This document shows, in pieces, positions 3,861 through 62,518 of a stretch of 64,000 nt of DNA. Under the pieces are notes generated by a model that was given only the letters and a program-made list of their open reading frames with translations, was not told where the DNA came from and did no database searches. The translations under genes were made by a program, and so were the position numbers. This stretch comes from Patescibacteria group bacterium (GTDB taxonomy: Bacteria > Patescibacteriota > Minisyncoccia > Phycocordibacterales > UBA9973), in the NCBI GenBank assembly GCA_038063515.1, contig JBBTUY010000001.1, positions 10,972 through 74,971 on the forward strand, read 5' to 3'. Numbering within the stretch: position 1 is the first letter of the stretch; every line of letters starts with the position of its first letter.

Positions 3861-6313
3861 AGAAGATTGAAGAATTAGAAAAAGAACCTCCAAAAGACGA
3901 AATCCTACAAGTTGACGTAGTTAAGGAGATGAAAGAGTCATACCTTGCGTATGCTATGTCTGTTATTACGTCACGTGCATTGCCTGACGTTAGAGACGGA
4001 CTCAAGCCTGTGCACAGGAGAATTCTCTTTGCTATGAATGAAATGGGGCTCACTGCTAGTGCACGTTTTCGTAAGTCTGCTGCAGTAGTCGGAGATGTGC
4101 TTGGAAAATACCATCCACACGGAGATGTGGCTGTGTACGACTCTATGGTGGGTATGGCACAAGAGTTTTCATACAGGTATCCTTTCATATTAGGCCAAGG
4201 TAACTTTGGTTCTATAGATGGAGACAATGCAGCTGCTATGCGTTATACCGAGGCTAAAATGTCTAAAATTTCTTCAGAGCTTATGAGGGATTTAGAAAAG
4301 GAGACAGTAGACTATCGTCCTAACTACGATCAGACTCGCAAAGAGCCAATAGTTTTTCCTTCATCTGTACCGGCACTTCTTTTAAACGGGACTCTCGGTA
4401 TTGCTGTTGGTATGGCGACAAATATCCCTTCGCACAATTTAGGCGAGGTTCTTGATGCAACAAGCCATCTGATTGAAAACGAAGATGCTACTACAGAAGA
4501 TTTAATGCAATTTGTAAAAGGACCTGATTTCCCTACAGGGGGCATAGCATACGGATACAAAGACATGCTTCACGCATACTCTGGTGGACGTGGTGGAGTG
4601 GTCACTAGAGGTGAAGCAGAAATAGTAGAACAAAAAGACGGTAATTTTTCTATAATTATTACTTCTATTCCTTTTAGAGTAAACAAAGCAAATCTAATCA
4701 TGGCTATTGCAGAATTAGTCCAAGAGAAAAAGCTTGAGGGTATAAAAGGCCTTCGTGATGAGTCTACGAGAGACATTCGTGTCGTTATAGATCTAAAGCC
4801 TAGCGCCCATCCAGAAAAAGTTTTAAATTATATTTACAAAAACACTCAGCTCGAGTCAAATTTCAATTTTAACATGGTAGCACTTGTGGACGGTGTGCCT
4901 CAGACTCTGTCTCTTAAGTCTATACTCGAGCAATTTATTTTACATAGAAAAGAAGTAGTACGAAGACGAAGTGAATACGATCTTAAAAAAGCACAAGAAC
5001 GTGAACACATTTTGCTTGGTTTGAAAAAAGCACTCGACAAGATTGATCGTGTTATCACCATCATTCGTGGCTCTAAGAATTCTCAAATTGCAAAACTAAA
5101 CTTAATGAAAGAATTTAAGTTTTCAGATTTACAGGCTACTGCCATACTTGAGATGAAGCTTTCAAAGCTCGCTGGTCTTGAGAGAAAGGCAGTGGAAGAT
5201 GAATTGAAAGAAAAACAAAATTTCATAGCAGAAATGAAAGATCTTCTTGCAAGTCCAAAAAAGATTTTGAAACTTATCGCAACAGAATTAAAAGAAATTC
5301 GTGAAAAATACGCAGACGAAAGAAGAACAAAGATCATCAAAGGGGGAGTAAAAGAAATCTCTGATGAAGATCTCGTGCCAGAAAAGGAGACTATGCTTGT
5401 GCTTACTGCCGGAGGATATGTAAAGTGTACAGATCCTAAAGAATACAAGTCACAAAAGCGTGGCGGTGTCGGCGTGATCGATCTTGAAACTAAAGAAGAA
5501 GACTTTGTTACAATGCTTGTCTCTGGTTCTACACATAGCAACATGCTTTTCTTCACAAACCTTGGTAAAGCATATCAAATGAAAATGTATGACATACCTG
5601 AGGGTCATCGTGCTACAAAAGGTAAGTCCATCATGAATTTCCTCTCACTTTCCGGTGATGAAAAGGTAAGCTCAATACTCGCCATGCCTAAAGATTTAAA
5701 TAAATCTTCTGCTTCACTTCTGCTTGTGACAAAAGACGGCACAGCAAAGAAAATGGCAAGTTCAAGCTTCCATGATGTGAGGAGGAGCGGAATCATAGCT
5801 ATTCGTCTCGACAAAGGCGACGAGCTCGTGGCCGCACTGAGTGTGGACAAAGGTGATGAGGTAATGATTGCAACAGGCGACGGACAAGCAATAAGATTTA
5901 AAGAGTCTGATGTGCGTGAAATGGGTAGAACTGCAGGAGGAGTTACCGGTATGAAATTAAAGAAAGGGGATATTGTCATAGGTGTGGATGTTATTAAAAA
6001 GGAACACAAAGATGGAACATTCCTCACCATGAGTGCAAATGGTTTTGGTAAAAAGACCAATCTTAAAGAATACAAAGTTCAGAAACGTGGTGGCTCTGGT
6101 ATAAAGACTGCAAAGGTTACAGGAAAGACAGGTAAGCTCATTGTCGCAAAAGTTCTAGCAGGGGAGGAAGAAGAGCTCGTAGCTATGTCTAAAAAAGGTC
6201 AGGTCATACGTACAGCACTCAAAGATATCTCAGCACTTGGTCGTCAGACACAAGGTGTCACGATAATGCGCCTACGCGCAGGTGACGGCATTGCATCACT
6301 TGCGTGCATATAA
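3854..6313 (+). CDS. gyrA: DNA gyrase subunit A
   Basis: [18 protein letters not shown] motif containing the active-site Tyr region; 819 aa with C-terminal beta-pinwheel repeats. Confidence 0.95.
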
Positions 6314-11229: not shown

Positions 11230-11682
11230 ATGCTTTGCACATTTGCTACTGACTCAAAAATACAAGACGTACTGAACTACATTACCTGCTTTGTGTCAAA
11301 ATCTATATTGCCTCTCATTTTTACAGTGGCTATAGTCCTCTTTGTTTGGGGTATAGTGCAGTTTTTCATTATAGGTTCAGGTGAAGAGGCAAAGAGGACT
11401 CAGGGCAAGCAGTTTATGATCTGGGGAATACTCGCTATGGCAGTGATCTTGTCTCTCTGGGGGCTCGTACGTATCCTAGGGAGCACTTTTGGCTTAAATA
11501 CAAGTATTTTACCAGGTACTCGGCCCTCGTCTTCTTCTAATTTTAATCCCGCAGGTACAGACCCAATAGACCCAGGGAATTTCCCTATTACCTTACCTGG
11601 GTCTGAGAACAGTGATAACGTGGATTCTCCCATACCTTGTGAGTTTAGTGCAGAAGGTTGCGGTGGTCAGGTTGAGAGTTAG
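11230..11682 (+). CDS. T4SS pilin-like protein, paralog with a Pro/Ser/Gly-rich C-terminal tail
   Basis: IIGSGEEAKRTQGKQFMIWG module nearly identical to the one in the upstream gene. Confidence 0.55.
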   Translation: MLCTFATDSKIQDVLNYITCFVSKSILPLIFTVAIVLFVWGIVQFFIIGSGEEAKRTQGKQFMIWGILAMAVILSLWGLVRILGSTFGLNTSILPGTRPSSSSNFNPAGTDPIDPGNFPITLPGSENSDNVDSPIPCEFSAEGCGGQVES

Positions 11683-11776
11683 CTTTTTATTTAGCGTGTA
11701 GTATAATATATAGGTATTATTTATTATTAAAATAGGTCGCTTATTATTATAAATTTATGTTTGTTAAAAATTAGTT

Positions 11777-12190
11777 ATGAAAAATAAATTAATGGTTTTA
11801 TCAGGTTTAGTTATGATGTCTGCTCCTGTCGTTGCTTTAGCACAGGTGCAAATACAGAGCGGTGGGGCATGTAGTGGTCTTATTGGTACTGGTACAACAC
11901 AAGGAGGAGTAAAGGAGATCATATGTCGTGTTGGAGATATATTAAGTACAATAGTCCCAGTATTGATGGTGCTTGCTATCATCTACTTCGTATGGGGAGT
12001 TATTAACTACGTTATCGCTAGTGATGAAGAAGCTAAAAAAGCAGGAAGAGATAGAATTATCTACGGAGTTATAGGTCTTGCTGTTATCGTCGGTGTATGG
12101 GGACTTGTAAAAATCGTTCAAGATACATTTGGTTTTGATAACACTAATACAAACCCTATAGTTCTACCAACTATCGATATCTATAACTAA
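11777..12190 (+). CDS. T4SS pilin-like protein, paralog
   Basis: Signal peptide ending in ALAQ, plus a VIASDEEAKKAGRDRIIYGVIGLAV module. Confidence 0.55.
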   Translation: MKNKLMVLSGLVMMSAPVVALAQVQIQSGGACSGLIGTGTTQGGVKEIICRVGDILSTIVPVLMVLAIIYFVWGVINYVIASDEEAKKAGRDRIIYGVIGLAVIVGVWGLVKIVQDTFGFDNTNTNPIVLPTIDIYN

Positions 12191-12192
12191 GC

Positions 12193-12516
12193 ATGATGAA
12201 TTTGTTTTCTACTAACATAGCCTATGCTGCGACGCCGGAGCTTGATAAGTTTATCAGGAACGTGGATCGACTTATTATAAATCCCATCATTACCTTACTT
12301 TTTGCTATTGCTGTCGTATATTTTCTTTACGGTGTGTTTCAGTTTTTGTGGGCTAGTGCAAGTGAAGAGAAAAAGACAAATGGCAAGTCGCACATGCTCT
12401 GGGGCATCATCGGGATCACGATCATGATGAGCGTCTGGGCTATCCTTGGTATCGTAATGCGTACCATAGGAGTCACAGGTATTAACCCACAGCAGGGAAC
12501 AGTGGAGCTAAGGTAG
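12193..12516 (+). CDS. T4SS pilin-like protein, paralog
   Basis: LWASASEEKKTNGKSHMLWGIIG module. Confidence 0.5.
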   Translation: MMNLFSTNIAYAATPELDKFIRNVDRLIINPIITLLFAIAVVYFLYGVFQFLWASASEEKKTNGKSHMLWGIIGITIMMSVWAILGIVMRTIGVTGINPQQGTVELR

Positions 12517-12540
12517 TAGAAATAAAATAAATAGAAATGT

Positions 12541-12575
12541 AAAAGAGCCGAATCATAAACGATTCGGCTCTTTTT
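12541..12575. terminator. Bidirectional rho-independent terminator AAAAGAGCCGAATC-ATAAAC-GATTCGGCTCTTTTT
   Basis: Perfect 10-bp stem flanked by A4 and T5, between convergent transcription units. Confidence 0.8.
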
Positions 12576-12644
12576 GTGCTAGCCAACAGCACGATTTTTC
12601 GGCTAAGACCCTTTGACGGGGGTCAGCCGTGTCATCTACAATCG

Positions 12645-13043
12645 TCACCAGCGATTGTAGATGACAACCTCCTGCCCTTTATCAGGGCGGAAGGTGTAAA
12701 ATCCCGCGGGTTCCTCGGGAGCATGATCGCTCCCGGGGCAGTCGTGAATCTCACGACCGCTGGGTGTGTCTATATAGATACACCCACCCTTCGGGTAGAT
12801 GGCTGGAGAAAGCTCTAGCCACTTCCGAAGGCCTTCCTTTGGAATCTTGAAACGCTTGGGGGTTTTAGCCCCGCTCCCACTGGTGGTGGTACCAGTGGAG
12901 GAATTTTTGGCTTCGACTTTTTGAGGGGCCTCAGCCAGTTGGGTTTTTTTGGTGCTACCCGCTTTCTTTATCAGAAAAGTAGTAACACCTAAGATGATCG
13001 CAGCAACAATGGCAATCAACAGAAGCCCGCTTATTTTTTTCAT
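12645..13043 (-). CDS. Small membrane-anchored protein; C-terminal part encoded by a GC-rich palindrome-dense segment
   Basis: Start codon shares one nucleotide with the upstream stop (TAATG). N-terminal TM anchor. The C-terminal 60 aa come from a region of about 58% GC. Confidence 0.4.
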   Translation of the reverse strand: MKKISGLLLIAIVAAIILGVTTFLIKKAGSTKKTQLAEAPQKVEAKNSSTGTTTSGSGAKTPKRFKIPKEGLRKWLELSPAIYPKGGCIYIDTPSGREIHDCPGSDHAPEEPAGFYTFRPDKGQEVVIYNRW

Positions 13044-14062
13044 TAGTTTTTACTCCCTAAGAATTTTGCAACCAGGGCTGCAGTTGCAGGGTCAAGGCTA
13101 AAATTTTGTGCAGCAATATTCTTCGTGGCCTTACCCAAAGCCATTTGAACTTGCTCTTCTGCTCTTAGCCTGTCCATGCCACCTTTGATAATATTTCCGT
13201 CTTCATCTTGACCTCCATTTACAAGGAGATCAACCATACTATCAAAGTGTCCAATTTCGACGATCTGTCCTTTACGTTGCAGCTTTTCTCTGGTTTTTAA
13301 GGCCAGGTCTTCAGCTACTTTTGAGTCCGAAGGAGCTATCTGAGGTATTACAACATTCGTTATTTTGATACCCCAGGCATCGCTGTCATCTTCGTTTAAT
13401 CTCTCAAGGAGTTGGTCTCCCAACTCCTCATTCGAACTAAGCACTGTTTCAAGATTCATTTGACGCACGCGCACTCTGATTACTTGGTCACGTGCGTCAT
13501 CGATACCTTGCTTTATGTCTTTCATTTCTACCCCGAGATATTCGTAAAGATTGTCGGGGTAATAAGTTACTGTTGCGCTTACAGTAACTTCTACGTTATC
13601 TGCGGTCATAACTCTTAGTTTGTCGAGCGGCATTATCTGCAGTTTGACGTCCTGCGTTTTCAAGGAAAATGGGAGAGGGATCCAACGTAGTCCTTCTCCA
13701 ATTTGAATTCTTTGCCGTTCGCCAAAAAGGAGGAGTAATCCTCTATGCCCAATTTCGACGGTGATGAGCCCATTGACGACCCACCACCCTAAGAATATCG
13801 TCCAAGCTAATAGCCCGAACCATATCCATGACATCGAGAAGCTTAGAAACGTTTCGTAGGCGCTTAGTAATACTAATCCCGCGCCCAGTATGCCCAGTAT
13901 TCTGTCGCCTTGTTCTTTTAAGAATACTAGACATACGATTCCGCCAATAATTCCGGCTACCACACTTAGGCCTTCGAAGCCGTAGATGCGGTAGATGAAT
14001 ATGGTGATTAATCCCAGCAGAGCTGCTGCCAGAACTAATCCTAAAAATTTTTCTTTTCCCAT
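13043..14062 (-). CDS. SPFH/band-7 (stomatin/HflK-like) membrane protein
   Basis: N-terminal multi-TM region, then an SPFH core (…IGHRGLLLLFGERQ…VMTADNVEVTVSATVTY…); AAGGAGA SD 5 nt before the ATG. Confidence 0.7.
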   Translation of the reverse strand: MGKEKFLGLVLAAALLGLITIFIYRIYGFEGLSVVAGIIGGIVCLVFLKEQGDRILGILGAGLVLLSAYETFLSFSMSWIWFGLLAWTIFLGWWVVNGLITVEIGHRGLLLLFGERQRIQIGEGLRWIPLPFSLKTQDVKLQIMPLDKLRVMTADNVEVTVSATVTYYPDNLYEYLGVEMKDIKQGIDDARDQVIRVRVRQMNLETVLSSNEELGDQLLERLNEDDSDAWGIKITNVVIPQIAPSDSKVAEDLALKTREKLQRKGQIVEIGHFDSMVDLLVNGGQDEDGNIIKGGMDRLRAEEQVQMALGKATKNIAAQNFSLDPATAALVAKFLGSKN

Positions 14063-15661: not shown

Positions 15662-15700
15662 ACCTATATAATAGCATATTTTAAATAAAAAGTCAAGTTG

Positions 15701-15782
15701 TGCTGGAGAAGGGACTCGAACCCTTAAGCCTTGCGGCACTAGTTCCTAAGACTAGCGCGTATACCAATTCCGCCACTCCAGC
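15701..15782 (-). tRNA. tRNA-Leu (anticodon TAG)
   Basis: Cloverleaf with a 7-bp acceptor stem, CTTAGGA anticodon loop, long variable arm, GGTTCGAGTCC T-arm. Confidence 0.8.
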
Positions 15783-15786
15783 AATG

Positions 15787-15859
15787 TGCGCCCTGAAGGG
15801 ATCGAACCTTCGACCTTATCCTTAAGAGGGATCTGCTCTACCAGCTGAGCTAAGGGCGC
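15787..15859 (-). tRNA. tRNA-Lys (anticodon CTT)
   Basis: GCGCCCT acceptor stem, GCTCAGCTGGTAGAGC D-arm, CTCTTAA anticodon loop, GGTTCGATCC T-arm. Confidence 0.8.
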
Positions 15860-15902
15860 ATTATTTTAAATTTTTTAACTTCTATTTTATAACATTCTTC
15901 TG

Positions 15903-16087
15903 TTGAATCCGCTACAGCTGAGCTAAGGGAGTATTTTATATTTTTAAAACCTACCTATATTATTATCTAATAAATTATTTTGTTGAACCCGCTACATCTA
16001 AACTAAGGGCGCATACGTATTTACATCTTATTTTAAACTATAATCTTACTAAAAATCTAACGACCTACCAAAACAACTAAGGGTGCA
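15903..16087 (-). repeat. Three degenerate copies of the 5' portion (acceptor plus D-arm) of tRNA-Lys at about 75-79 bp periodicity (15903-15934, 15983-16013, 16056-16087)
   Basis: Shared core CTAAGGG[C/A/T]G[C/T]AT and GCTACAGCTGAGCTAAGGG; similarity decays with distance from the intact tRNA-Lys. Confidence 0.5.
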
Positions 16088-16117
16088 TTTATAAAACAAA
16101 AAAATTTCAAAAAACGG

Positions 16118-16199
16118 TGCCCGGAGTGGGAGTCGAACCCACATCCCTTACGAGACACGATTTTAAGTCGTGCGCGTATACCAATTCCGCCATCCGGGC
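16118..16199 (-). tRNA. tRNA-Leu (anticodon TAA)
   Basis: GCCCGGA acceptor stem, CTTAAAA anticodon loop, long variable arm, GGGTTCGACTCCC T-arm. Confidence 0.8.
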
Positions 16200-16259
16200 A
16201 ATTTATTTATAACCTTCCTAATATATCAGAGAAATAAAGAAATGTTAAATAAAATGCTG

Positions 16260-16332
16260 AGGCCACGGTGGGATTTGCACCCACGCGTCGCGGTTTTGCA
16301 GACCGCTGTGTTAGCTACTTCACCACGTGGCC
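16260..16332 (-). tRNA. tRNA-Cys (anticodon GCA), non-canonical T-loop UGCAAAU
   Basis: 7-bp GGCCACG acceptor stem, 5-bp anticodon stem with CTGCAAA loop, 5-bp T-stem; 3-bp D-stem. Confidence 0.65.
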
Positions 16333-24075: not shown

Positions 24076-24159
24076 GCGTCGGTGGTAGAGTGGTCAAATA
24101 CAACAGACTGTAAATCTGTCGGCCTTAGGCCTACGAAGGTTCGAATCCTTCCCGACGCA
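24076..24159 (+). tRNA. tRNA-Tyr (anticodon GTA)
   Basis: GCGTCGG acceptor stem, CTGTAAA anticodon loop, long variable arm, GGTTCGAATCC T-arm. Confidence 0.8.
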
Positions 24160-24165
24160 CAATAT

Positions 24166-56358: not shown

Positions 56359-56460
56359 ACAAGAATATTAACATACTAGAAAATTTGAGGAAGCCTCTCT
56401 GGTGCGTAAAAGTGGGGGTAAGGTGTGGAGAATTATTTTAAGTGTGATAATATAGTAAAT

Positions 56461-57417
56461 ATGTCTAAGAAAATACTATTATCTGGTTTAAAACCAACAG
56501 GAGCCCCGCATATAGGGAATTATTTTGGTGCAATAAAACAATGGGTAGATCTAATAAATGAGTATGAAAGCTATGTCTTTATTGCTGACTACCACGCCTT
56601 GAATTTCATTCAAAATAGAGAAGAAATGAGTAAAAATATTGTAAATGTTCTGCTCGACTATTTAGCGCTTGGTCTTGATCCAGCAAAAGTTACAATATTT
56701 AAACAAAGTGATGTGAGTGTTCACACTGAGCTCACTTGGATTTTTGATACTATCACCACCATGCCTTACCTTATGCGAGCACATGCATATAAAGATGCAG
56801 AAGCGAAGAATAAAGAGATAGTAGTAGGAACTTTTAATTACCCGTTACTTATGGCTTCTGACATATTGCTTTATGATGCAAATATTGTACCTGTGGGCCA
56901 AGACCAACAGCAGCACGTAGAAATAGCGAGAGATACAGCTCAAAAATTCAACAATACTTTCGGTGAAACTTTTATATTACCAGAACACAAGATAGTGAAA
57001 GAGGTAGCTGTAGTTCCGGGTACAGACGGAAGAAAGATGAGCAAGAGTTATGGCAATACAATCCCGCTATTTGCAGAATATGAAGAAATACAAAAGTTAA
57101 TTATGGGTATTGTGACTGATTCAAGTGAAGGTATTCCTAAAAATGTTTATGAGATACACAAGCTTGTGAGAAGTGAAGATGAATTAAAAAAGATTTATGA
57201 AGAAAATTCAGGAAAGTACAAGATCTTAAAAGAGACACTAATAGAAGACTTAGAGAAATTCATCGCTCCACTTAGGGAAAAGAGGAAAGAATTTGAGAAA
57301 GATATACCAAAAGCACTAGAAATATTAAAAAAGGGTGGAGAAAAAGCAAAGAAAATTGCCGAAGAAAAAATGAAAGAAGTGAGAAAGAAAATAGGAGTGG
57401 ATGTTTATGAAAAATAA
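56461..57417 (+). CDS. trpS: Tryptophan--tRNA ligase
   Basis: HIGN (GAPHIGNYFGA) and KMSKS motifs. ATG 56461 chosen within the longer frame. Confidence 0.85.
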   Translation: MSKKILLSGLKPTGAPHIGNYFGAIKQWVDLINEYESYVFIADYHALNFIQNREEMSKNIVNVLLDYLALGLDPAKVTIFKQSDVSVHTELTWIFDTITTMPYLMRAHAYKDAEAKNKEIVVGTFNYPLLMASDILLYDANIVPVGQDQQQHVEIARDTAQKFNNTFGETFILPEHKIVKEVAVVPGTDGRKMSKSYGNTIPLFAEYEEIQKLIMGIVTDSSEGIPKNVYEIHKLVRSEDELKKIYEENSGKYKILKETLIEDLEKFIAPLREKRKEFEKDIPKALEILKKGGEKAKKIAEEKMKEVRKKIGVDVYEK

Positions 57418-57700
57418 TATAGATCTCTATAAAAAGGAAGTGACTGAAGTTATTTATAAAATAGCTAAAGATAAAGGTCTTTTGTCTGATTTTATAAAAG
57501 ATATATTAACCCCCCGAGAGTTTGAAAATCTAAGTGTTCGCTGGCAGATAGTCAAACGTCTCTCAAGAGGGGAACATCATCAATCCATAGCAGAAGATTT
57601 ACATTTAGGTGTCGCTACTGTTACCAGGGGATCCAGGGAGATGCGTAAGAAAGAAGGCGGACTTCAAAGAGCATTAAAAGTCCTTAAAGCTATTAAATAA
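57401..57700 (+). CDS. TrpR-like protein (YerC/YecD family)
   Basis: TPREFENLSVRWQIVKRLSRGEHHQSIAEDLHLGVATVTRGS matches the Trp-repressor-like HTH; 17-nt overlap with trpS. Confidence 0.6.
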   Translation: MFMKNNIDLYKKEVTEVIYKIAKDKGLLSDFIKDILTPREFENLSVRWQIVKRLSRGEHHQSIAEDLHLGVATVTRGSREMRKKEGGLQRALKVLKAIK

Positions 57701-57989
57701 AAAACAAAGTTACTCACACATATATAAAAGTCACACTTGACTTTCTTTTCTATATATACTAGCATACTAGTATGATAGTAATAAATCATTTTCAAATGCA
57801 AAAAAATACATTAAACATAATGAGTGAAAATAGGGAAGTCACTGGGTTATCTTGGTGGGGCGTAAAGCATCTAGCTTTTACGTCTCTCTGTTGATTTCTT
57901 ACTTAATTTTAATTGACTATTTAAAACAAGGAATCCATTAAGTGGCGCAAGAGCGTCATTTTTTTTGTTCTTTAAAAAAGGAGATTAAT

Positions 57990-58766
57990 ATGAAGAGAAA
58001 AGAACTACAGCTCCAGCTGCCAAACGTCGCTGAGATTCCTGCTTGGGTCTTGCGCTCTATTGAGCGCAAGATTAAGAGTGGAACACTTATACTTGTATCT
58101 GCAGTTTGCCCTGACTATGAAAGAGCAGATCGTAGATTTACTTATAAAAATGTTGGCTGGGGTGTACCATACATCGCTGGCCAACATTTGGAAGTGGTCA
58201 AAGCATTAATTTCTCAAATTCCTAATTCTGTTAAAGTTACATACCATGTAACTTTGGCTGATACTGAATTTGATTTACCACTCGTCATGGATCATTTGGT
58301 TGGAGGTGATCCAAATGAATTTCTCCAACGCTGCCAACTTAGTTGCGAGAAAATTCTAGAGCGGGCGCTGGAAATAAATTTGCCAGTCAAAAGCTCAAGC
58401 CGCTTCACTGAGGTTTTCCCTCAATGGTTTCAACTGTATGAATTAGCACTTTTGCAATTCAAACAAGAAGCTAAAGTTAGCTCTTCAACCGGATACGATT
58501 TAGAGTCGGGAGCACAGAAACGTGTCCCACTCTATGCGGCAATGGCGGGTCACGAAGTTGGTGTGGAGTATTGTCGAGAGATGGTATTACGCCAGTGGGC
58601 TCAATATGCGGCATGGGGTGAGGCTGCGCGTGGGGTCTTTGGTCAAGACTTTGTCATGATCAATCACTCGACCCCCAACCTAGGTCGGGTCAATGATCAG
58701 ATTTTCCGGAAGGATAGGGAACGAATTCCAATCCTTCAACTATCGACCACTACGACACCCGAGTAG
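57990..58766 (+). CDS. Hypothetical protein encoded by a GC-rich (about 50%) segment; unknown function
   Basis: AAGGAG SD 6 nt upstream of ATG 57990; composition differs sharply from the flanks. No family recognised. Confidence 0.4.
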   Translation: MKRKELQLQLPNVAEIPAWVLRSIERKIKSGTLILVSAVCPDYERADRRFTYKNVGWGVPYIAGQHLEVVKALISQIPNSVKVTYHVTLADTEFDLPLVMDHLVGGDPNEFLQRCQLSCEKILERALEINLPVKSSSRFTEVFPQWFQLYELALLQFKQEAKVSSSTGYDLESGAQKRVPLYAAMAGHEVGVEYCREMVLRQWAQYAAWGEAARGVFGQDFVMINHSTPNLGRVNDQIFRKDRERIPILQLSTTTTPE

Positions 58767-58810
58767 TGGTCACATCTTCACCCTTCTGTCGCTCGTGCGG
58801 TAGAAGGGTG
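58745..58810 (+). terminator. Two consecutive hairpins (GACCACTAC...GTAGTGGTC; CACCCTTCT...AGAAGGGTG) at the 3' end of the GC-rich gene
   Basis: Two perfect 9-bp inverted repeats read directly; the first spans the stop codon; weak U-tract. Confidence 0.4.
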
Positions 58811-58838: not shown

Positions 58839-59465
58839 ATGCCAAAAATTATTCCAATCATTACTAGTGCGCCAATAAAGTATGCTTTTGACGGGCTCGA
58901 CACATATGATGCTTTTGACTTGGTTTCTCAGGGAATCAAAGAAGCACCTCTTTCAGAAAATGTGCTGGAAATTATAAAAAATCATAAATTCTCCTTTCCA
59001 CTTAAAGGAATAAAAATAATTTTTACTGCTGAAAAAGGTCAGACCGTAGAGACGGCAAAACTTTTTATAGACTCTGGAATCACTCCAAATGCAAAAATTG
59101 TTCGTACTTATCTTCTGAATGGTATTAATTTTTCTATGAGAAATTTAATATCAAAGGAGAAGTTTGTCAGTATGCCTCAGGGTCAGGCTCTTTCCTTGGC
59201 ACGCGAAGCTTTTGTCATAGAATTATATAAAAATAATTTAGAAGAATCTTTAGGGAGTATTATTTCACAAATGAATAGTTTACTTTCTTTACTAAAAGAT
59301 CAAAAAGGCTCAGTGCTTTGTATTTCCCACTCTTTTTATATTAAACTTTTTGAAATATATATAAAAGATAGATCCAGGTTTTTAGACGTAGAAATATTAA
59401 TAGATTCATTCAATCCAGAACATAAGCCCTATGAACCACTTTCGGGTTTTATTTTAGAGATTTAA
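58839..59465 (+). CDS. Hypothetical protein, weak histidine-phosphatase-like similarity
   Basis: LCISHSFYIKLFE loosely resembles the second conserved His region of the phosphoglycerate-mutase superfamily. Confidence 0.3.
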   Translation: MPKIIPIITSAPIKYAFDGLDTYDAFDLVSQGIKEAPLSENVLEIIKNHKFSFPLKGIKIIFTAEKGQTVETAKLFIDSGITPNAKIVRTYLLNGINFSMRNLISKEKFVSMPQGQALSLAREAFVIELYKNNLEESLGSIISQMNSLLSLLKDQKGSVLCISHSFYIKLFEIYIKDRSRFLDVEILIDSFNPEHKPYEPLSGFILEI

Positions 59466-59508: not shown

Positions 59509-61146
59509 ATGACACAAGCGGAAGCTTTGAATATTTTAAAAACAGGGGCAAATGTTTTCTTGACTGGTGAACCCGGAGCAGGGAAAACGCATACGGTTAA
59601 TTCTTATATTTCATATTTACGTGACTCTAATATTGAGCCAGCTGTTACTGCTTCTACTGGTATCGCAGCGACACACATTAATGGTATGACTATACATTCA
59701 TGGAGTGGTATTGGTATACGACCAAGATTAGACAAATATGATTTAGATAAAATAGCGAGTAGTGAATATATTGCAAAGCGTATTCATAAGACTCGAGTGC
59801 TTATCATAGATGAGATTTCTATGTTGTCGGCTGATACTCTTGATATGGTGGACATGGTTTGCCGAGAAGTAAAACAAAACACTGAGCCATTTGGGGGAAT
59901 ACAGATCGTCTTAGTCGGTGATTTTTTTCAATTACCACCAATTATAAAAAGAGATTTTTACCATGAAGAAAAAACGAGAAAACAAAATTCTTTTTTAGAA
60001 GAAGAATCAAATTCACAAATTCCAAAAGTTTTCGCTTACGATTCGACTGCATGGGGGCGTACTGATCCTGTTATTTGCTACTTGACTGAGCAACATCGTC
60101 AGGATGATGAGTCTTTTCTTAAAATACTCGCAGCTATTCGCAGTGATGAAGTTTCTGAAGAAGATTTTGAAAAAATAATTACTCGAAAAATAAATAGGGA
60201 TAGTATGCCGTTAAATATTACAAAACTTTTTTCACACAATGTTGATGTGGACAAGGTAAACAATATTGAACTTTTAAAACTAGATAAAGATGTAAAATCA
60301 TTTGTAATGTCTACCGCTGGCAACGACAAGCTGGTGGATACTTTGAAAAAGGGTTGCTTGTCTCCAGAGAATTTGGAATTAAAAGTCGGCGCAGTTGTTA
60401 TGTGTACAAAAAATAATCCAAAAGAGAGATTTGCAAATGGAACTCTCGGCACTGTCACTTCTTTTGAAGAGTTTACGGGATATCCCATTATTAAAACTAA
60501 AAATGGTAGAAGTATTGTGATTTCACCCATGGATTGGGCTGTTGAAGAAAATGGAAAGATTCGTGCACAGATAACTCAGTTTCCACTTCGCCTCGCTTGG
60601 GCTATCACGGTGCACAAAAGTCAGGGGATGAGCATGGACGCTGCTATTATGGATTTGTCTCAAGTGTTTGAATTTGGGCAAGGGTATGTGGCTTTGTCTC
60701 GTGTGCGTAAGCTCTCTGGAATTTATTTACTCGGTATAAATGAGCGTGCTTTTAAAGTGCATCCAGAAATTCTAGAGAAGGACATATTTTTTAAAGATAG
60801 ATCACGGCAAGCAGTGGAAGTCTTCGGTAATCTTTCAGAAAATGAGATCAAGAAAATGCATGATGATTTTATCATCTCTTCTGGGGGTAAAATAAAGAAA
60901 CCTTTTCGTAGTGGCGGAGAGAAAAAAGAAGGAAAGTCTGTATCTCTAATTAAATCCTCAACAAAATCTTTTGAAGAAATACCAGAAAAATATCCAAATG
61001 CATATAGACCATGGAATGAAAATCAGGATGCAAAGTTAACAGAGTTATATACTTCCGGTTCCTCTATACCGGAATTAGTAGAGACATTTGGGAGGAAAAG
61101 AGGTGCTATTACTTCTAGGCTTGTGAAGCTTGGGTTGAGGGAATAA
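59509..61146 (+). CDS. PIF1/RecD-like superfamily-1 helicase with C-terminal HTH
   Basis: Walker A LTGEPGAGKTHT, Walker B LIIDEISML, QIVLVGDFFQLPP and C-terminal SF1 motifs. Confidence 0.7.
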   Translation: MTQAEALNILKTGANVFLTGEPGAGKTHTVNSYISYLRDSNIEPAVTASTGIAATHINGMTIHSWSGIGIRPRLDKYDLDKIASSEYIAKRIHKTRVLIIDEISMLSADTLDMVDMVCREVKQNTEPFGGIQIVLVGDFFQLPPIIKRDFYHEEKTRKQNSFLEEESNSQIPKVFAYDSTAWGRTDPVICYLTEQHRQDDESFLKILAAIRSDEVSEEDFEKIITRKINRDSMPLNITKLFSHNVDVDKVNNIELLKLDKDVKSFVMSTAGNDKLVDTLKKGCLSPENLELKVGAVVMCTKNNPKERFANGTLGTVTSFEEFTGYPIIKTKNGRSIVISPMDWAVEENGKIRAQITQFPLRLAWAITVHKSQGMSMDAAIMDLSQVFEFGQGYVALSRVRKLSGIYLLGINERAFKVHPEILEKDIFFKDRSRQAVEVFGNLSENEIKKMHDDFIISSGGKIKKPFRSGGEKKEGKSVSLIKSSTKSFEEIPEKYPNAYRPWNENQDAKLTELYTSGSSIPELVETFGRKRGAITSRLVKLGLRE

Positions 61147-61156
61147 TTATGTTAAA

Positions 61157-62518
61157 ATGCAATTACTTATGAAAAATAGAGTATATATTAAAGATTTAAA
61201 AGATCATGTGGGTAAGGAGGTAATGATTGCTGGATGGGTAGACGTGCGCAGAGATCAAGGAAAAATGATATTTTTTGATATGCGTGATATGACAGGCAAA
61301 GTGCAGTGTGTCGTACTTCCAAATCATCCAGAAGCCATAGAGAAATGCAAAGACATAAGACTCGAATGGGTGGTGAAGCTTACTGGAATGGTAAACAAGC
61401 GTCCAGAGAGAAATGTAAAAGCTGGAGTTATGAATGGTGATGTAGAGCTCGAAGTTTTAGATGTGGAAGTTCTGTCCCAGGCTGCGCCACTACCTTTTGA
61501 CATGTCTCTCGATGGTTACAATCTTGACCTTACGACAGAGCTTGATAACAGATCTTTGGTGTTAAGACAGCCAAAGGTTCAAGCAGTATTTAAAATACAA
61601 GAAACAGTCATAGACTCGTTCCGAGAATTTATGAAGAAAAATATGTTTTTCGAATTTCAAGCACCAGCCATAACTCCTGCGACAGCAGAAGGTGGAGCCG
61701 AAGTTTTTCAAGTTGATTATTTTGATAAAAAAGCATATTTAACTCAGTCACCTCAGCTCTACAAGCAAATAGTCATGTCTGCATTTGAGAGATGTTTTTC
61801 TGTGAATAAAGTTTTTCGTGCAGAGCCTTCGTCTACAACTCGACACCTCACAGAGATCGTATCTCTAGATGCTGAGATGGCATTTATTGATTCTTGGACT
61901 GACGTGCGTGACATGGCCGAAGAGACAGTGAGATTTATTTTGCAACAAGTACAAGAAAGAAATGGAGAACATTTAAAAACACTCGGAGCAACATTGCCTA
62001 CGATGATAGACAAAACTCCAACTATGTCTCTTAGAGAAGTGCAAGAAAAGATCTTTGCTAAAAATGGACGAGATGTGCGAGGAGAGAAAGATACAAACCC
62101 TCAAGATGAAAGAGAGATATGCGAAATAATAAAAGAAGAGACTGGTTCTGACTTTGTATTTATATACGGCTATCCAACACGTAAGAAGCCTTTTTATGTA
62201 TATCCAAATCCAGATGAACCAGAATACAACGAAGGTATGGACTTAATATGTCGCGGTGTCGAATGGCTCTCAGGAGGCAGAAGAATAAATGAATACGAGC
62301 AACTGATGAAGCATGTTGAGATTTGGAAAATGGATCCAAGTAAAATAAAAATGTTCTTACAAGCATTTAAATACGGAGTACCACCAGAAGGTGGCTTTGC
62401 TCTTGGTGCTGAGCGCATCACCATGCAACTTCTTGAATTAAAAAATGTACGTGAAGCTTGTATGTTTCCTCGTGATATGAACAGAATAGATGAGAAGTTA
62501 AACTTTGATGGATTCTAA
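61157..62518 (+). CDS. aspS: Class IIb aminoacyl-tRNA synthetase, most likely archaeal-type aspartate--tRNA ligase (AsnRS not excluded)
   Basis: N-terminal OB fold (VMIAGWV...GKMIFFDMRD), motif 2 FRAEPSSTTRHLTE, motif 3 GGFALGAERI. Confidence 0.6.
   Translation: MQLLMKNRVYIKDLKDHVGKEVMIAGWVDVRRDQGKMIFFDMRDMTGKVQCVVLPNHPEAIEKCKDIRLEWVVKLTGMVNKRPERNVKAGVMNGDVELEVLDVEVLSQAAPLPFDMSLDGYNLDLTTELDNRSLVLRQPKVQAVFKIQETVIDSFREFMKKNMFFEFQAPAITPATAEGGAEVFQVDYFDKKAYLTQSPQLYKQIVMSAFERCFSVNKVFRAEPSSTTRHLTEIVSLDAEMAFIDSWTDVRDMAEETVRFILQQVQERNGEHLKTLGATLPTMIDKTPTMSLREVQEKIFAKNGRDVRGEKDTNPQDEREICEIIKEETGSDFVFIYGYPTRKKPFYVYPNPDEPEYNEGMDLICRGVEWLSGGRRINEYEQLMKHVEIWKMDPSKIKMFLQAFKYGVPPEGGFALGAERITMQLLELKNVREACMFPRDMNRIDEKLNFDGF

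Follow-up and report, generated by a model that had tools for sequence, protein, structure and literature searches.

Within the 64,000-nt stretch of Patescibacteria DNA analyzed here (the window), the forward-strand gene at 57990-58766, hereafter gene A, encodes a protein of 258 amino acids and is the first gene of a two-gene operon, followed by gene B (58839-59465, forward strand, 208 amino acids). From the control elements predicted ahead of gene A, in the window and in orthologous loci (designated by L numbers), we consider A and B to be, probably, a tryptophan-responsive operon that is conserved in the Patescibacteria or candidate phyla radiation (CPR) and acts on Trp or tRNA-Trp. That the operon is induced by a shortage of Trp or of charged tRNA-Trp appears more probable still. 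We infer the role on Trp or tRNA-Trp because three independent sensing devices, a TrpR-type operator, an attenuator, and a T-box, appear to tie expression to Trp shortage. An earlier note, made from the bare sequence, had correctly described the open reading frame (ORF), which starts with ATG, with its Shine-Dalgarno (SD) sequence AAGGAG (57978-57983, forward strand, 6 nt 5' of the ATG), as well as the AT-rich intergenic stretch upstream (57701-57989, approximately 290 nt). It had also pointed to a structured leader and to the adjacency of trpS and a TrpR-like gene. Both are real, but the Trp-codon leader ORF, the terminator before the SD, and the TrpR-type operator went unrecognized, and the adjacency was taken as mere context although it is key to the locus.

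The gene trpS, encoding tryptophan--tRNA ligase, is located at 56425-57417 on the forward strand (278 bits to TIGR00233 against a cut-off of 176.75, with a match to Pfam tRNA-synt_1b). Its listed GTG start at 56425 is probably wrong and the true start is probably the ATG at 56461 (MSKKILLSG...); translated from there, the protein lines up with the TrpRS models from their first residue onwards. The TrpR-like repressor gene follows at 57401-57700 on the same strand and encodes 99 amino acids (Pfam Trp_repressor, E-value 8.7e-15; 55 bits, where the cut-off is 27). The two genes overlap by 17 nt and are probably co-transcribed. In the window, L001, L004, L012, L020, and L025, a TrpR-like gene immediately precedes gene A, and this arrangement occurs in at least three unrelated contexts, namely that of the window, that of L020, and that of L025.

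A sigma-70-like promoter, TTGACT-17-TAGCAT, was located at 57737-57765 on the forward strand by a consensus scan, as a pattern match of 9/12 positions. Its −10 box is overlapped by tandem palindromes resembling TrpR operators, ATACTAGCATACTAGTAT, at 57756-57773, which include the palindrome ATACTAGTAT (57764-57773) that had been noticed earlier. The motif RTACTAGYA occurs seven times in the window against 1.9 expected, a number reached in 0 of 100 shuffles, and three of these hits fall at 57756-57773. Across 27 loci, all nine matches to the operator 8-mer TACTAGTA lie in intergenic DNA upstream of gene A, and they are confined to loci that bear a TrpR gene (L001/L007, L004/L008, L012, and L020). 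In E. coli, GTACTAGTAC makes up the pair of half-sites in the trp operator. What marks a TrpR operator, a CTAG-centred palindrome at a promoter with a TrpR-family gene adjacent to it, is present here, and binding of the repressor is predicted on that basis. In L020, two identical modules of operator plus promoter, GTACTAGTACACTATTGAC, are located at 4596-4924, one before a 57-amino-acid ORF (4663-4836) and the other before gene A.

Downstream of the operators, the ORF scan revealed a leader-peptide ORF ending in ...LSWWGVKHLAFTSLC* (57772-57894, forward strand, stop codon at 57892-57894). It may start at the ATG at 57772, in which case it is possibly leaderless, or at the ATG at 57820. Its tandem Trp codons (57853-57858) abut a hairpin at 57857-57886 (forward strand), the 1:2 hairpin of a predicted attenuator, which was identified by folding and by an alignment of the window, L001, and L012. 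In this alignment 91.7% of the pairing is kept, with two compensatory pairs. The hairpin corresponds to the inverted repeat CGTAAAGC/GCTTTTACG of the earlier note, which exists as an imperfect one but lies at 57861-57882 within the stem 57857-57886, not at 57868-57893. An intrinsic terminator was found at 57940-57966 on the forward strand, with a stem at 57940-57961 followed by eight T residues, directly before the SD. In constrained folding, 57874-57900 pairs with 57928-57954, giving a predicted antiterminator (57874-57954, forward strand) that occupies the 5' arm of the terminator and includes the conserved UGAUUUCU:AAGGAAUC pairing. When a ribosome was modelled on the Trp codons, this helix formed in the minimum free energy (MFE) fold and the terminator was lost; with the ribosome modelled at the leader stop, the terminator formed. 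The motifs kept in the window, L001, and L012 are the partners of the alternative helices, namely UCUGUUGAUUUCU, AAGGAAU, and GUUCUUU.

Leaders of this kind recur in the orthologous loci. Two adjacent Trp codons are found in the window, L001, L010, and L028, while the leader of L022 contains WWW, that of L025 WRW, that of L006 WPW, and that of L012 a single W. Each of these W-containing leaders, in the window and in seven loci, is followed by a terminator ahead of the gene A SD. Seven leaders were folded, L028 being left out, and a stalling-dependent switch was obtained in silico, by constrained MFE folding, in six of them (window, L001, L006, L010, L022, and L025). Adjacent Trp codons, a terminator, and an antiterminator favoured by stalling are the features of a trp-type attenuator, and all were found; the device is predicted from sequence. 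A further motif, GYTCTTT, stands just 5' of the gene A SD in the window (GTTCTTT, 57967-57973) and in L001, L004, L011, L012, L013, L019, and L022. It is common to leaders of the attenuator type, of the operator-only type, and of the T-box type, can base-pair either with the SD or, in the terminator conformer, with AAGGAAU, and may constitute an additional layer of translational control.

In its layout, the region resembles the trp control region of E. coli, which likewise has a CTAG-centred palindromic operator over the promoter, a leader ORF in which Trp codons stand side by side, 1:2, 2:3, and 3:4 hairpins that exclude one another, and an intrinsic terminator just before the first gene. Unlike in E. 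coli, the repressor gene lies next to the operon and is linked to trpS; the leader ORF is possibly leaderless and has no sequence similarity to trpL, and the genes under control are of unknown function.

T-boxes were found in other loci of the family. RF00230 was the top Rfam family in the gene A leaders of six loci, with E-values of 1.6e-9 (L019), 1.2e-6 (L026), 3.9e-5 (L011), 1.9e-4 (L002), 2.7e-4 (L023), and 0.02 (L013). In the window no T-box was seen at E-values up to 10, and the Rfam scan of the leader, which the earlier note had suggested, returned only matches at chance level. The stem I bulge reads YUGGG in L002, L011, L013, and L019, and the terminal loop of L026, AGAAUGGG, reads GAA-UGG-G; the sequence of L023 is truncated 5' of this region. 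UGG with a purine after it is here taken to be a predicted Trp specifier. In the T-box bulge, UGGU was seen in four loci and UGGC in one, and both pair with G73; the CPR tRNA-Trp of L025 carries G73. A Leu specifier (YUG) was ruled out by the GAA-UGG-G of L026 and by the bulge C of L013, which requires G73, and a Gly specifier (GGG) was ruled out because GGG would precede a paired C. The T-box sequence, the UGGN bulge, the terminator and antiterminator, and the specifier followed by a purine are all present in the orthologous T-box loci. These loci share with RF00230 of the reduced stem I, actinobacterial ileS type the sequence GGGUGGUAYCRCG, the F-box or stem IIA-B, the terminator/antiterminator, and UGG plus a purine in the loop or bulge of stem I. 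They differ from RF00230 in a very short stem I, with which the low T-box scores are consistent, and in that the regulated genes do not encode an aminoacyl-tRNA synthetase (aaRS), a biosynthetic enzyme, or a transporter.

Other links to Trp were seen around the operon. In L025, the attenuator is followed by a tRNA-Trp(CCA) gene, and gene A starts 24 nt after it; no tRNA-Trp gene was found within the 64-kb window. A trpS gene above the TIGR00233 cut-off adjoins in the window, L001, and L004, and in L026 trpS lies on the opposite strand, approximately 3 kb upstream. In the Falkowbacteria locus L005, a 75-amino-acid CxxC...CxxC (zinc-ribbon-like) ORF is found upstream of gene A (4732-4959), where it occupies the place of any recognizable Trp-sensing leader.

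Taken together, these elements would operate as follows. The promoter at 57737-57765 would be overlapped by the operators at 57756-57773, with the product of the TrpR-like gene just upstream as the cognate repressor, and the transcript would open with the leader ORF bearing the two adjacent Trp codons. With charged tRNA-Trp scarce, the ribosome would stall on these codons and cover the 5' arm of hairpin 1:2; the freed segment 57874-57900 would pair with 57928-57954, and this antiterminator would block the terminator at 57940-57966, so that A and B are transcribed. With Trp plentiful, the ribosome would reach the leader stop and the terminator would form, and TrpR would also block the promoter. 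The window would thus be under the dual control of TrpR and attenuation that governs the trp operon of E. coli, and T-boxes would substitute elsewhere. The product of gene A, together with that of gene B, would then act on Trp, on a Trp precursor or conjugate, or on (Trp-)tRNA-Trp, and so relieve the shortage of charged tRNA-Trp.

Several observations weigh against this reading. The leader of L012, with its single Trp codon, showed no switch in the folding model, and no Trp-sensing element was recognized in L005, L014, L021, and L024, two of which have very little upstream sequence. The T-box scores of 24-47 bits are all below the Rfam gathering threshold of 93, stem I and the specifier were assigned by hand, and a UUG or CUG specifier is excluded solely by L026 and the discriminator argument. 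The TrpR-like protein reaches 38.9 bits with TIGR01321, which is below the cut-off, and to our knowledge the TrpR-like proteins of CPR organisms have never been characterized. Finally, the Trp content of the gene A protein, 1.9% against 0.88% for the proteins of the window, is unusual for a protein made in Trp starvation.

As the earlier note had it, the gene A protein belongs to no nameable family: neither the single sequence nor profiles of 33 or 96 sequences gave a match in Pfam, NCBIfam, PADLOC, PHROGs, or the PDB sequences, no Pfam domain was found in ten superfamily members searched individually or in the 96-member alignment, and the cluster names and source annotations all read 'hypothetical protein'. 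Patescibacteria/Saccharibacteria-like metagenome assemblies are the source of the exact protein and of the relatives closest to it. The core family comprises approximately 33 members with 45-74% identity, all from CPR metagenomes, while an exhaustive profile search (E-value at most 1e-3) extended the wider family to 383 cluster representatives, with clusters at 50% identity. Three loci were found in the GTDB genome scan and 12 in the metagenome scan; the family is rare or poorly assembled. The protein is characterized by the motifs VSAVCPDY, LADTEFDLP, RQWAQY..WG, and NHxTPNL. The 33 members of the CPR subfamily agree without exception at more than 40 positions, among them S37, A38, C40, P41, and Y43; L89-L96 (LADTEFDL); R138 and F139; R178; Y194; R201, Q202, Q205, Y206, and W209; and N225, H226, T228, and N230. 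Across the 96-member superfamily, C40 (in VCPDY) is the only invariant residue and S37 is not invariant, while P41, Y43, A90, E93, R178, and Y206 are kept in at least 90% of the members.

The structure of the gene A protein was modelled with AlphaFold as a single domain, with a pLDDT of 92.3 and a pTM of 0.90. In the Foldseek search against the PDB, the top 22 matches were all cyclodipeptide synthases (CDPSs), with E-values from 1.6e-4 to 1.6e-3 and TM scores of 0.41-0.51; lower-ranked CDPS matches reached a TM score of 0.53. These were followed by PIsnA and PvcA (TM scores of 0.45-0.48) and then by the TyrRS 4nd6. The model thus resembles the class-I aaRS-like Rossmann fold (CDPS/IsnA/TyrRS-like) in an uncharacterized family, and the protein is probably a soluble enzyme, with a chemistry related to Trp or tRNA-Trp. 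Its fold would be that of the catalytic domain in class Ic aaRSs, of which the CDPSs and IsnA/PvcA are offshoots. No HIGH or KMSKS motif was visible in the 33-member alignment and no match to tRNA-synt_1b was found; unlike TrpRS and TyrRS with their anticodon-binding domain, the protein is a single domain of 258 amino acids, and its likeness to 4nd6 is at the level of the fold only.

Wherever the sequence of a locus continues downstream, the gene directly after gene A is a homologue of gene B. The distant pair in L026 has the same layout, its A-like protein matching the profile with an E-value of 3e-25 and its B-like protein being 26% identical (E-value 5e-10). Gene B encodes a protein with a histidine-phosphatase (phosphoglycerate mutase-like) fold, its model (pLDDT 93.9) matching phosphoglycerate mutases and histidine phosphatases with TM scores of 0.45-0.57. 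The earlier note had called it phosphatase-like, which is right for the fold, but the catalytic His is absent: instead of RHG, the end of strand 1 carries an invariant T9-S10-A11. Matches to the Pfam histidine phosphatase family (PF00300) were weak or faint, and limited to two gene B orthologues. With the members of PF00300 (dPGM, PhoE, and PspA), gene B shares, besides the fold, a region TAEKGQTVETA equivalent to SPLxRAxQTA and, in many of its members, the late SH motif. As RHG is replaced, the conserved second Arg is Gln68, and SH is lost in several orthologues, gene B is probably not a phosphatase, judging by its sequence, and we rejected an active phosphatase. Two Trp residues were counted in the 3558 residues of 17 gene B orthologues and none in the protein of the window, a low content which fits synthesis when Trp is scarce.

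The two hairpins described earlier at the 3' end of gene A were both found. One, at 58745-58771 on the forward strand, is a perfect 9-bp inverted repeat (GACCACTAC/GTAGTGGTC) across the TAG stop codon at 58764-58766, and the other is a GC-rich hairpin of 14 pairs (CACCCTTCT.../...AGAAGGGTG) in the spacer between A and B (58779-58810, forward strand), which is terminator-like with an imperfect T tract. Jointly they fold at −39.3 kcal/mol against −16.5 (standard deviation, SD in what follows written as sd, 2.7) for shuffled sequences, giving a z of −8.5. A strong hairpin within the A-B spacer was found in 13/16 loci, often with a U run, and hairpins of a similar kind straddle the stop codon in L001, L002, L005, L020, and L024. 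The double 3' hairpin is conserved in kind across the loci and may set the ratio of A to B expression.

Other explanations of gene A were weighed against a Trp-responsive operon. The earlier note held gene A to be likely acquired horizontally, and a recently acquired compositional island with no functional tie to its neighbours would account for its GC content, approximately 2 sd above the mean of the window genes (37.0%, sd 3.8%, in a greedy set of 66 window ORFs that served as the baseline for composition), and for the occurrence of the A-B cassette in several distinct genomic contexts across the CPR. The GC content is 45.0% for the coding sequence, not the approximately 50% stated earlier, although 52-54% is indeed reached in its 3' part in 200-nt windows. 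The GC content at third codon positions (GC3), a comparison also proposed there, is 0.39 against 0.30 (sd 0.06) in the 66 ORFs, that is, +1.4 sd, and the region 11230-14062 of the window equals or exceeds gene A in GC. Among 16 loci with a background GC ranging from 32% to 61%, gene A is above its own locus in 11 and gene B below its own locus in 15. Since this A-rich, B-poor pattern recurs across lineages differing in base composition, the contrast is a trait of the gene pair and its family and not a sign of recent import. Moreover, the same neighbourhood is found in L001 and L004, where the order recR-dnaB / trpS-trpR / A-B / aspS-ribF-eamA is shared; gene A is 74% and 59% identical to that of the window, respectively, and the flanking proteins are 68-90% identical, so gene A has diverged as the flanking housekeeping genes have. 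As the promoter also has operators for the neighbouring TrpR gene, we regard a recent acquisition as very unlikely. The GC3 values of gene A and gene B are 0.39 and 0.23 in the window, 0.52 and 0.20 in L001, and 0.55 and 0.28 in L006. High expression as the source of the GC3 of gene A was ruled out because the ribosomal-protein genes of the window show ordinary GC3.

Three further possibilities concern what the proteins do, and each seems improbable to us. Gene A could be a genuine CDPS that turns aminoacyl-tRNAs (e.g., Trp-tRNA-Trp) into a diketopiperazine, with B helping it or tailoring the product. CDPSs (AlbC, YvmC, Rv2275; PF16715) rank first among the structural matches, and gene A has their secondary-structure order, with conserved residues of its own at topologically equivalent places (the end of strand 1, the long helix, and the next strand); Ser37, invariant in the CPR subfamily, ends strand 1 as in the G-x-S motif of CDPSs, one orthologue is co-transcribed with tRNA-Trp, and Parcubacteria are known to have a true CDPS (PMC5816076). 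On the other hand, gene A has an extra beta-hairpin after strand 1, Pfam CDPS was not matched even at an E-value of up to 1, and hhalign against a CDPS profile (AlbC/Rv2275/YvmC/BtCDPS) gave a probability of 0.1%. Because hhalign showed no relation, residues were equated only through secondary structure and through spacing relative to the strand-4 His; the CDPS-defining residues are described in PMC5816076. By these equivalences, S37 of gene A would correspond to S37 of AlbC, C40 to N40, R201 to Y178, Q205 to E182, and N225-H226 to Y202-H203, so that the essential Y178, E182, and Y202 would be replaced by R, Q, and N. The active-site residues thus appear to differ from those of CDPSs and, if the mapping is correct, the pocket would be kept and the chemistry changed. 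It is also C40, not Ser37, that is conserved throughout the superfamily, and it would be counter-intuitive to induce a consumer of Trp-tRNA when charged tRNA-Trp is scarce. An IsnA/PvcA-like enzyme (PF05141) that modifies free Trp, e.g., by condensing it with a sugar phosphate, and yields a metabolite or signal instead of supplying Trp would fit the related Rossmann fold of PIsnA and PvcA, whose substrates are aromatic amino acids (Trp, Tyr), and the invariant R138, R178, and R201, which could bind a phosphate or carboxylate. A distant superfamily member in L015 lies beside a 2OG-Fe(II) (2-oxoglutarate and iron) oxygenase, recalling the pairing of IsnA with IsnB. Yet no superfamily member scanned matched DIT1_PvcA or any other Pfam family, no oxygenase partner was found in any CPR locus, with a pseudo-phosphatase standing in its place, and induction by Trp shortage argues against a Trp-consuming pathway. 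With the induction logic opposite and the defining residues or partners missing, a Trp-consuming enzyme of either kind is less likely. A and B could, finally, be non-enzymatic sensors or regulators that bind uncharged tRNA-Trp, TrpRS, or TrpR in an anti-TRAP-like manner. The Bacillus anti-TRAP gene is controlled by a Trp T-box and a Trp-codon leader, gene B lacks the catalytic His of its fold, and the fold relatives of gene A bind tRNA acceptor ends. Against such a role, the more than 40 invariant residues of gene A are polar, aromatic, and Cys residues clustered in active-site-like motifs, and the superfamily is broad and also found in contexts resembling biosynthetic clusters.

Returning to the Trp-responsive operon, we tentatively suggest, as a possibility that may well prove wrong, that A and B provide a new route by which auxotrophic CPR bacteria are supplied with Trp or charged tRNA-Trp, gene A representing a new branch of the class-I aaRS/CDPS fold that works with a cysteine. 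Trp might, for example, be salvaged from a conjugate or cyclodipeptide of host origin, or the route might include a step that depends on tRNA-Trp. CPR bacteria are believed to rely on hosts for amino acids and to lack Trp biosynthesis. A dedicated Trp-starvation operon would point to an unrecognized way of coping with Trp limitation in these host-dependent organisms, and the gene A family may add to the kinds of catalysis carried out by the aaRS/CDPS fold. Three unrelated Trp sensors on one gene pair give a precise functional lead for a superfamily whose clusters at 50% identity number at least 383 and which has no relative in Pfam, NCBIfam, or the PDB sequences. They also suggest, as a prediction from sequence, that the ultra-small CPR/Patescibacteria use classical attenuation of the trp-operon style together with TrpR control. 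No prior description was found in the literature on CDPSs, T-boxes, TrpR, or leader peptides in the CPR. The regulatory devices are of known kinds, in a phylum for which no description was found, and the genes under their control come from a superfamily of known fold that lacks annotation.

The homologue in L015 (3760-10092) comes from a high-GC genome, is approximately 26% identical to gene A, and is N-terminally extended. Its neighbours have the look of a biosynthetic cluster and comprise a fatty-acid hydroxylase, a 424-amino-acid protein of an unknown family, the 2OG-Fe(II) oxygenase, and a penicillin amidase.

Around the operon, the TrpRS proteins encoded beside trpR-A-B in the window and in L004 share only 35% identity, while DnaB is 90% identical, which suggests that trpS was replaced by a different type of TrpRS in one lineage. 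The helicase gene reported earlier downstream of the operon is Pif1/RecD-like (59509-61146, between gene B and aspS; Pfam PIF1, E-value 2.6e-34, and PADLOC PDC-S68/RecD-like matches). It has no counterpart at the syntenic site in L001 and L004, where tblastn found nothing and the gap is only 470-730 nt; it is the helicase gene and not gene A that has the look of a lineage-specific insertion. Genes with a tRNA-synt_2 domain (class II Asp/Asn/Lys-type) are located within a few kb of A-B in three different contexts (window 61157-62518, L002 7875-9368, and L005 924-2207), a proximity that may be coincidental.

Elsewhere in the window, tRNA-Tyr is located at 24076-24160, and a cluster of tRNA genes for Leu, Lys, Leu, and Cys lies on the reverse strand at 15700-16332. 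The second GC-rich stretch, 11230-14062, has genes with a GC content of 0.44-0.51. It contains genes resembling type IV secretion system (T4SS) pilins (11230-11682 and 12193-12516), a 132-amino-acid ORF without a family (12645-13043, reverse strand, GC 0.51), and an SPFH/Band-7 gene (13043-14062, reverse strand).

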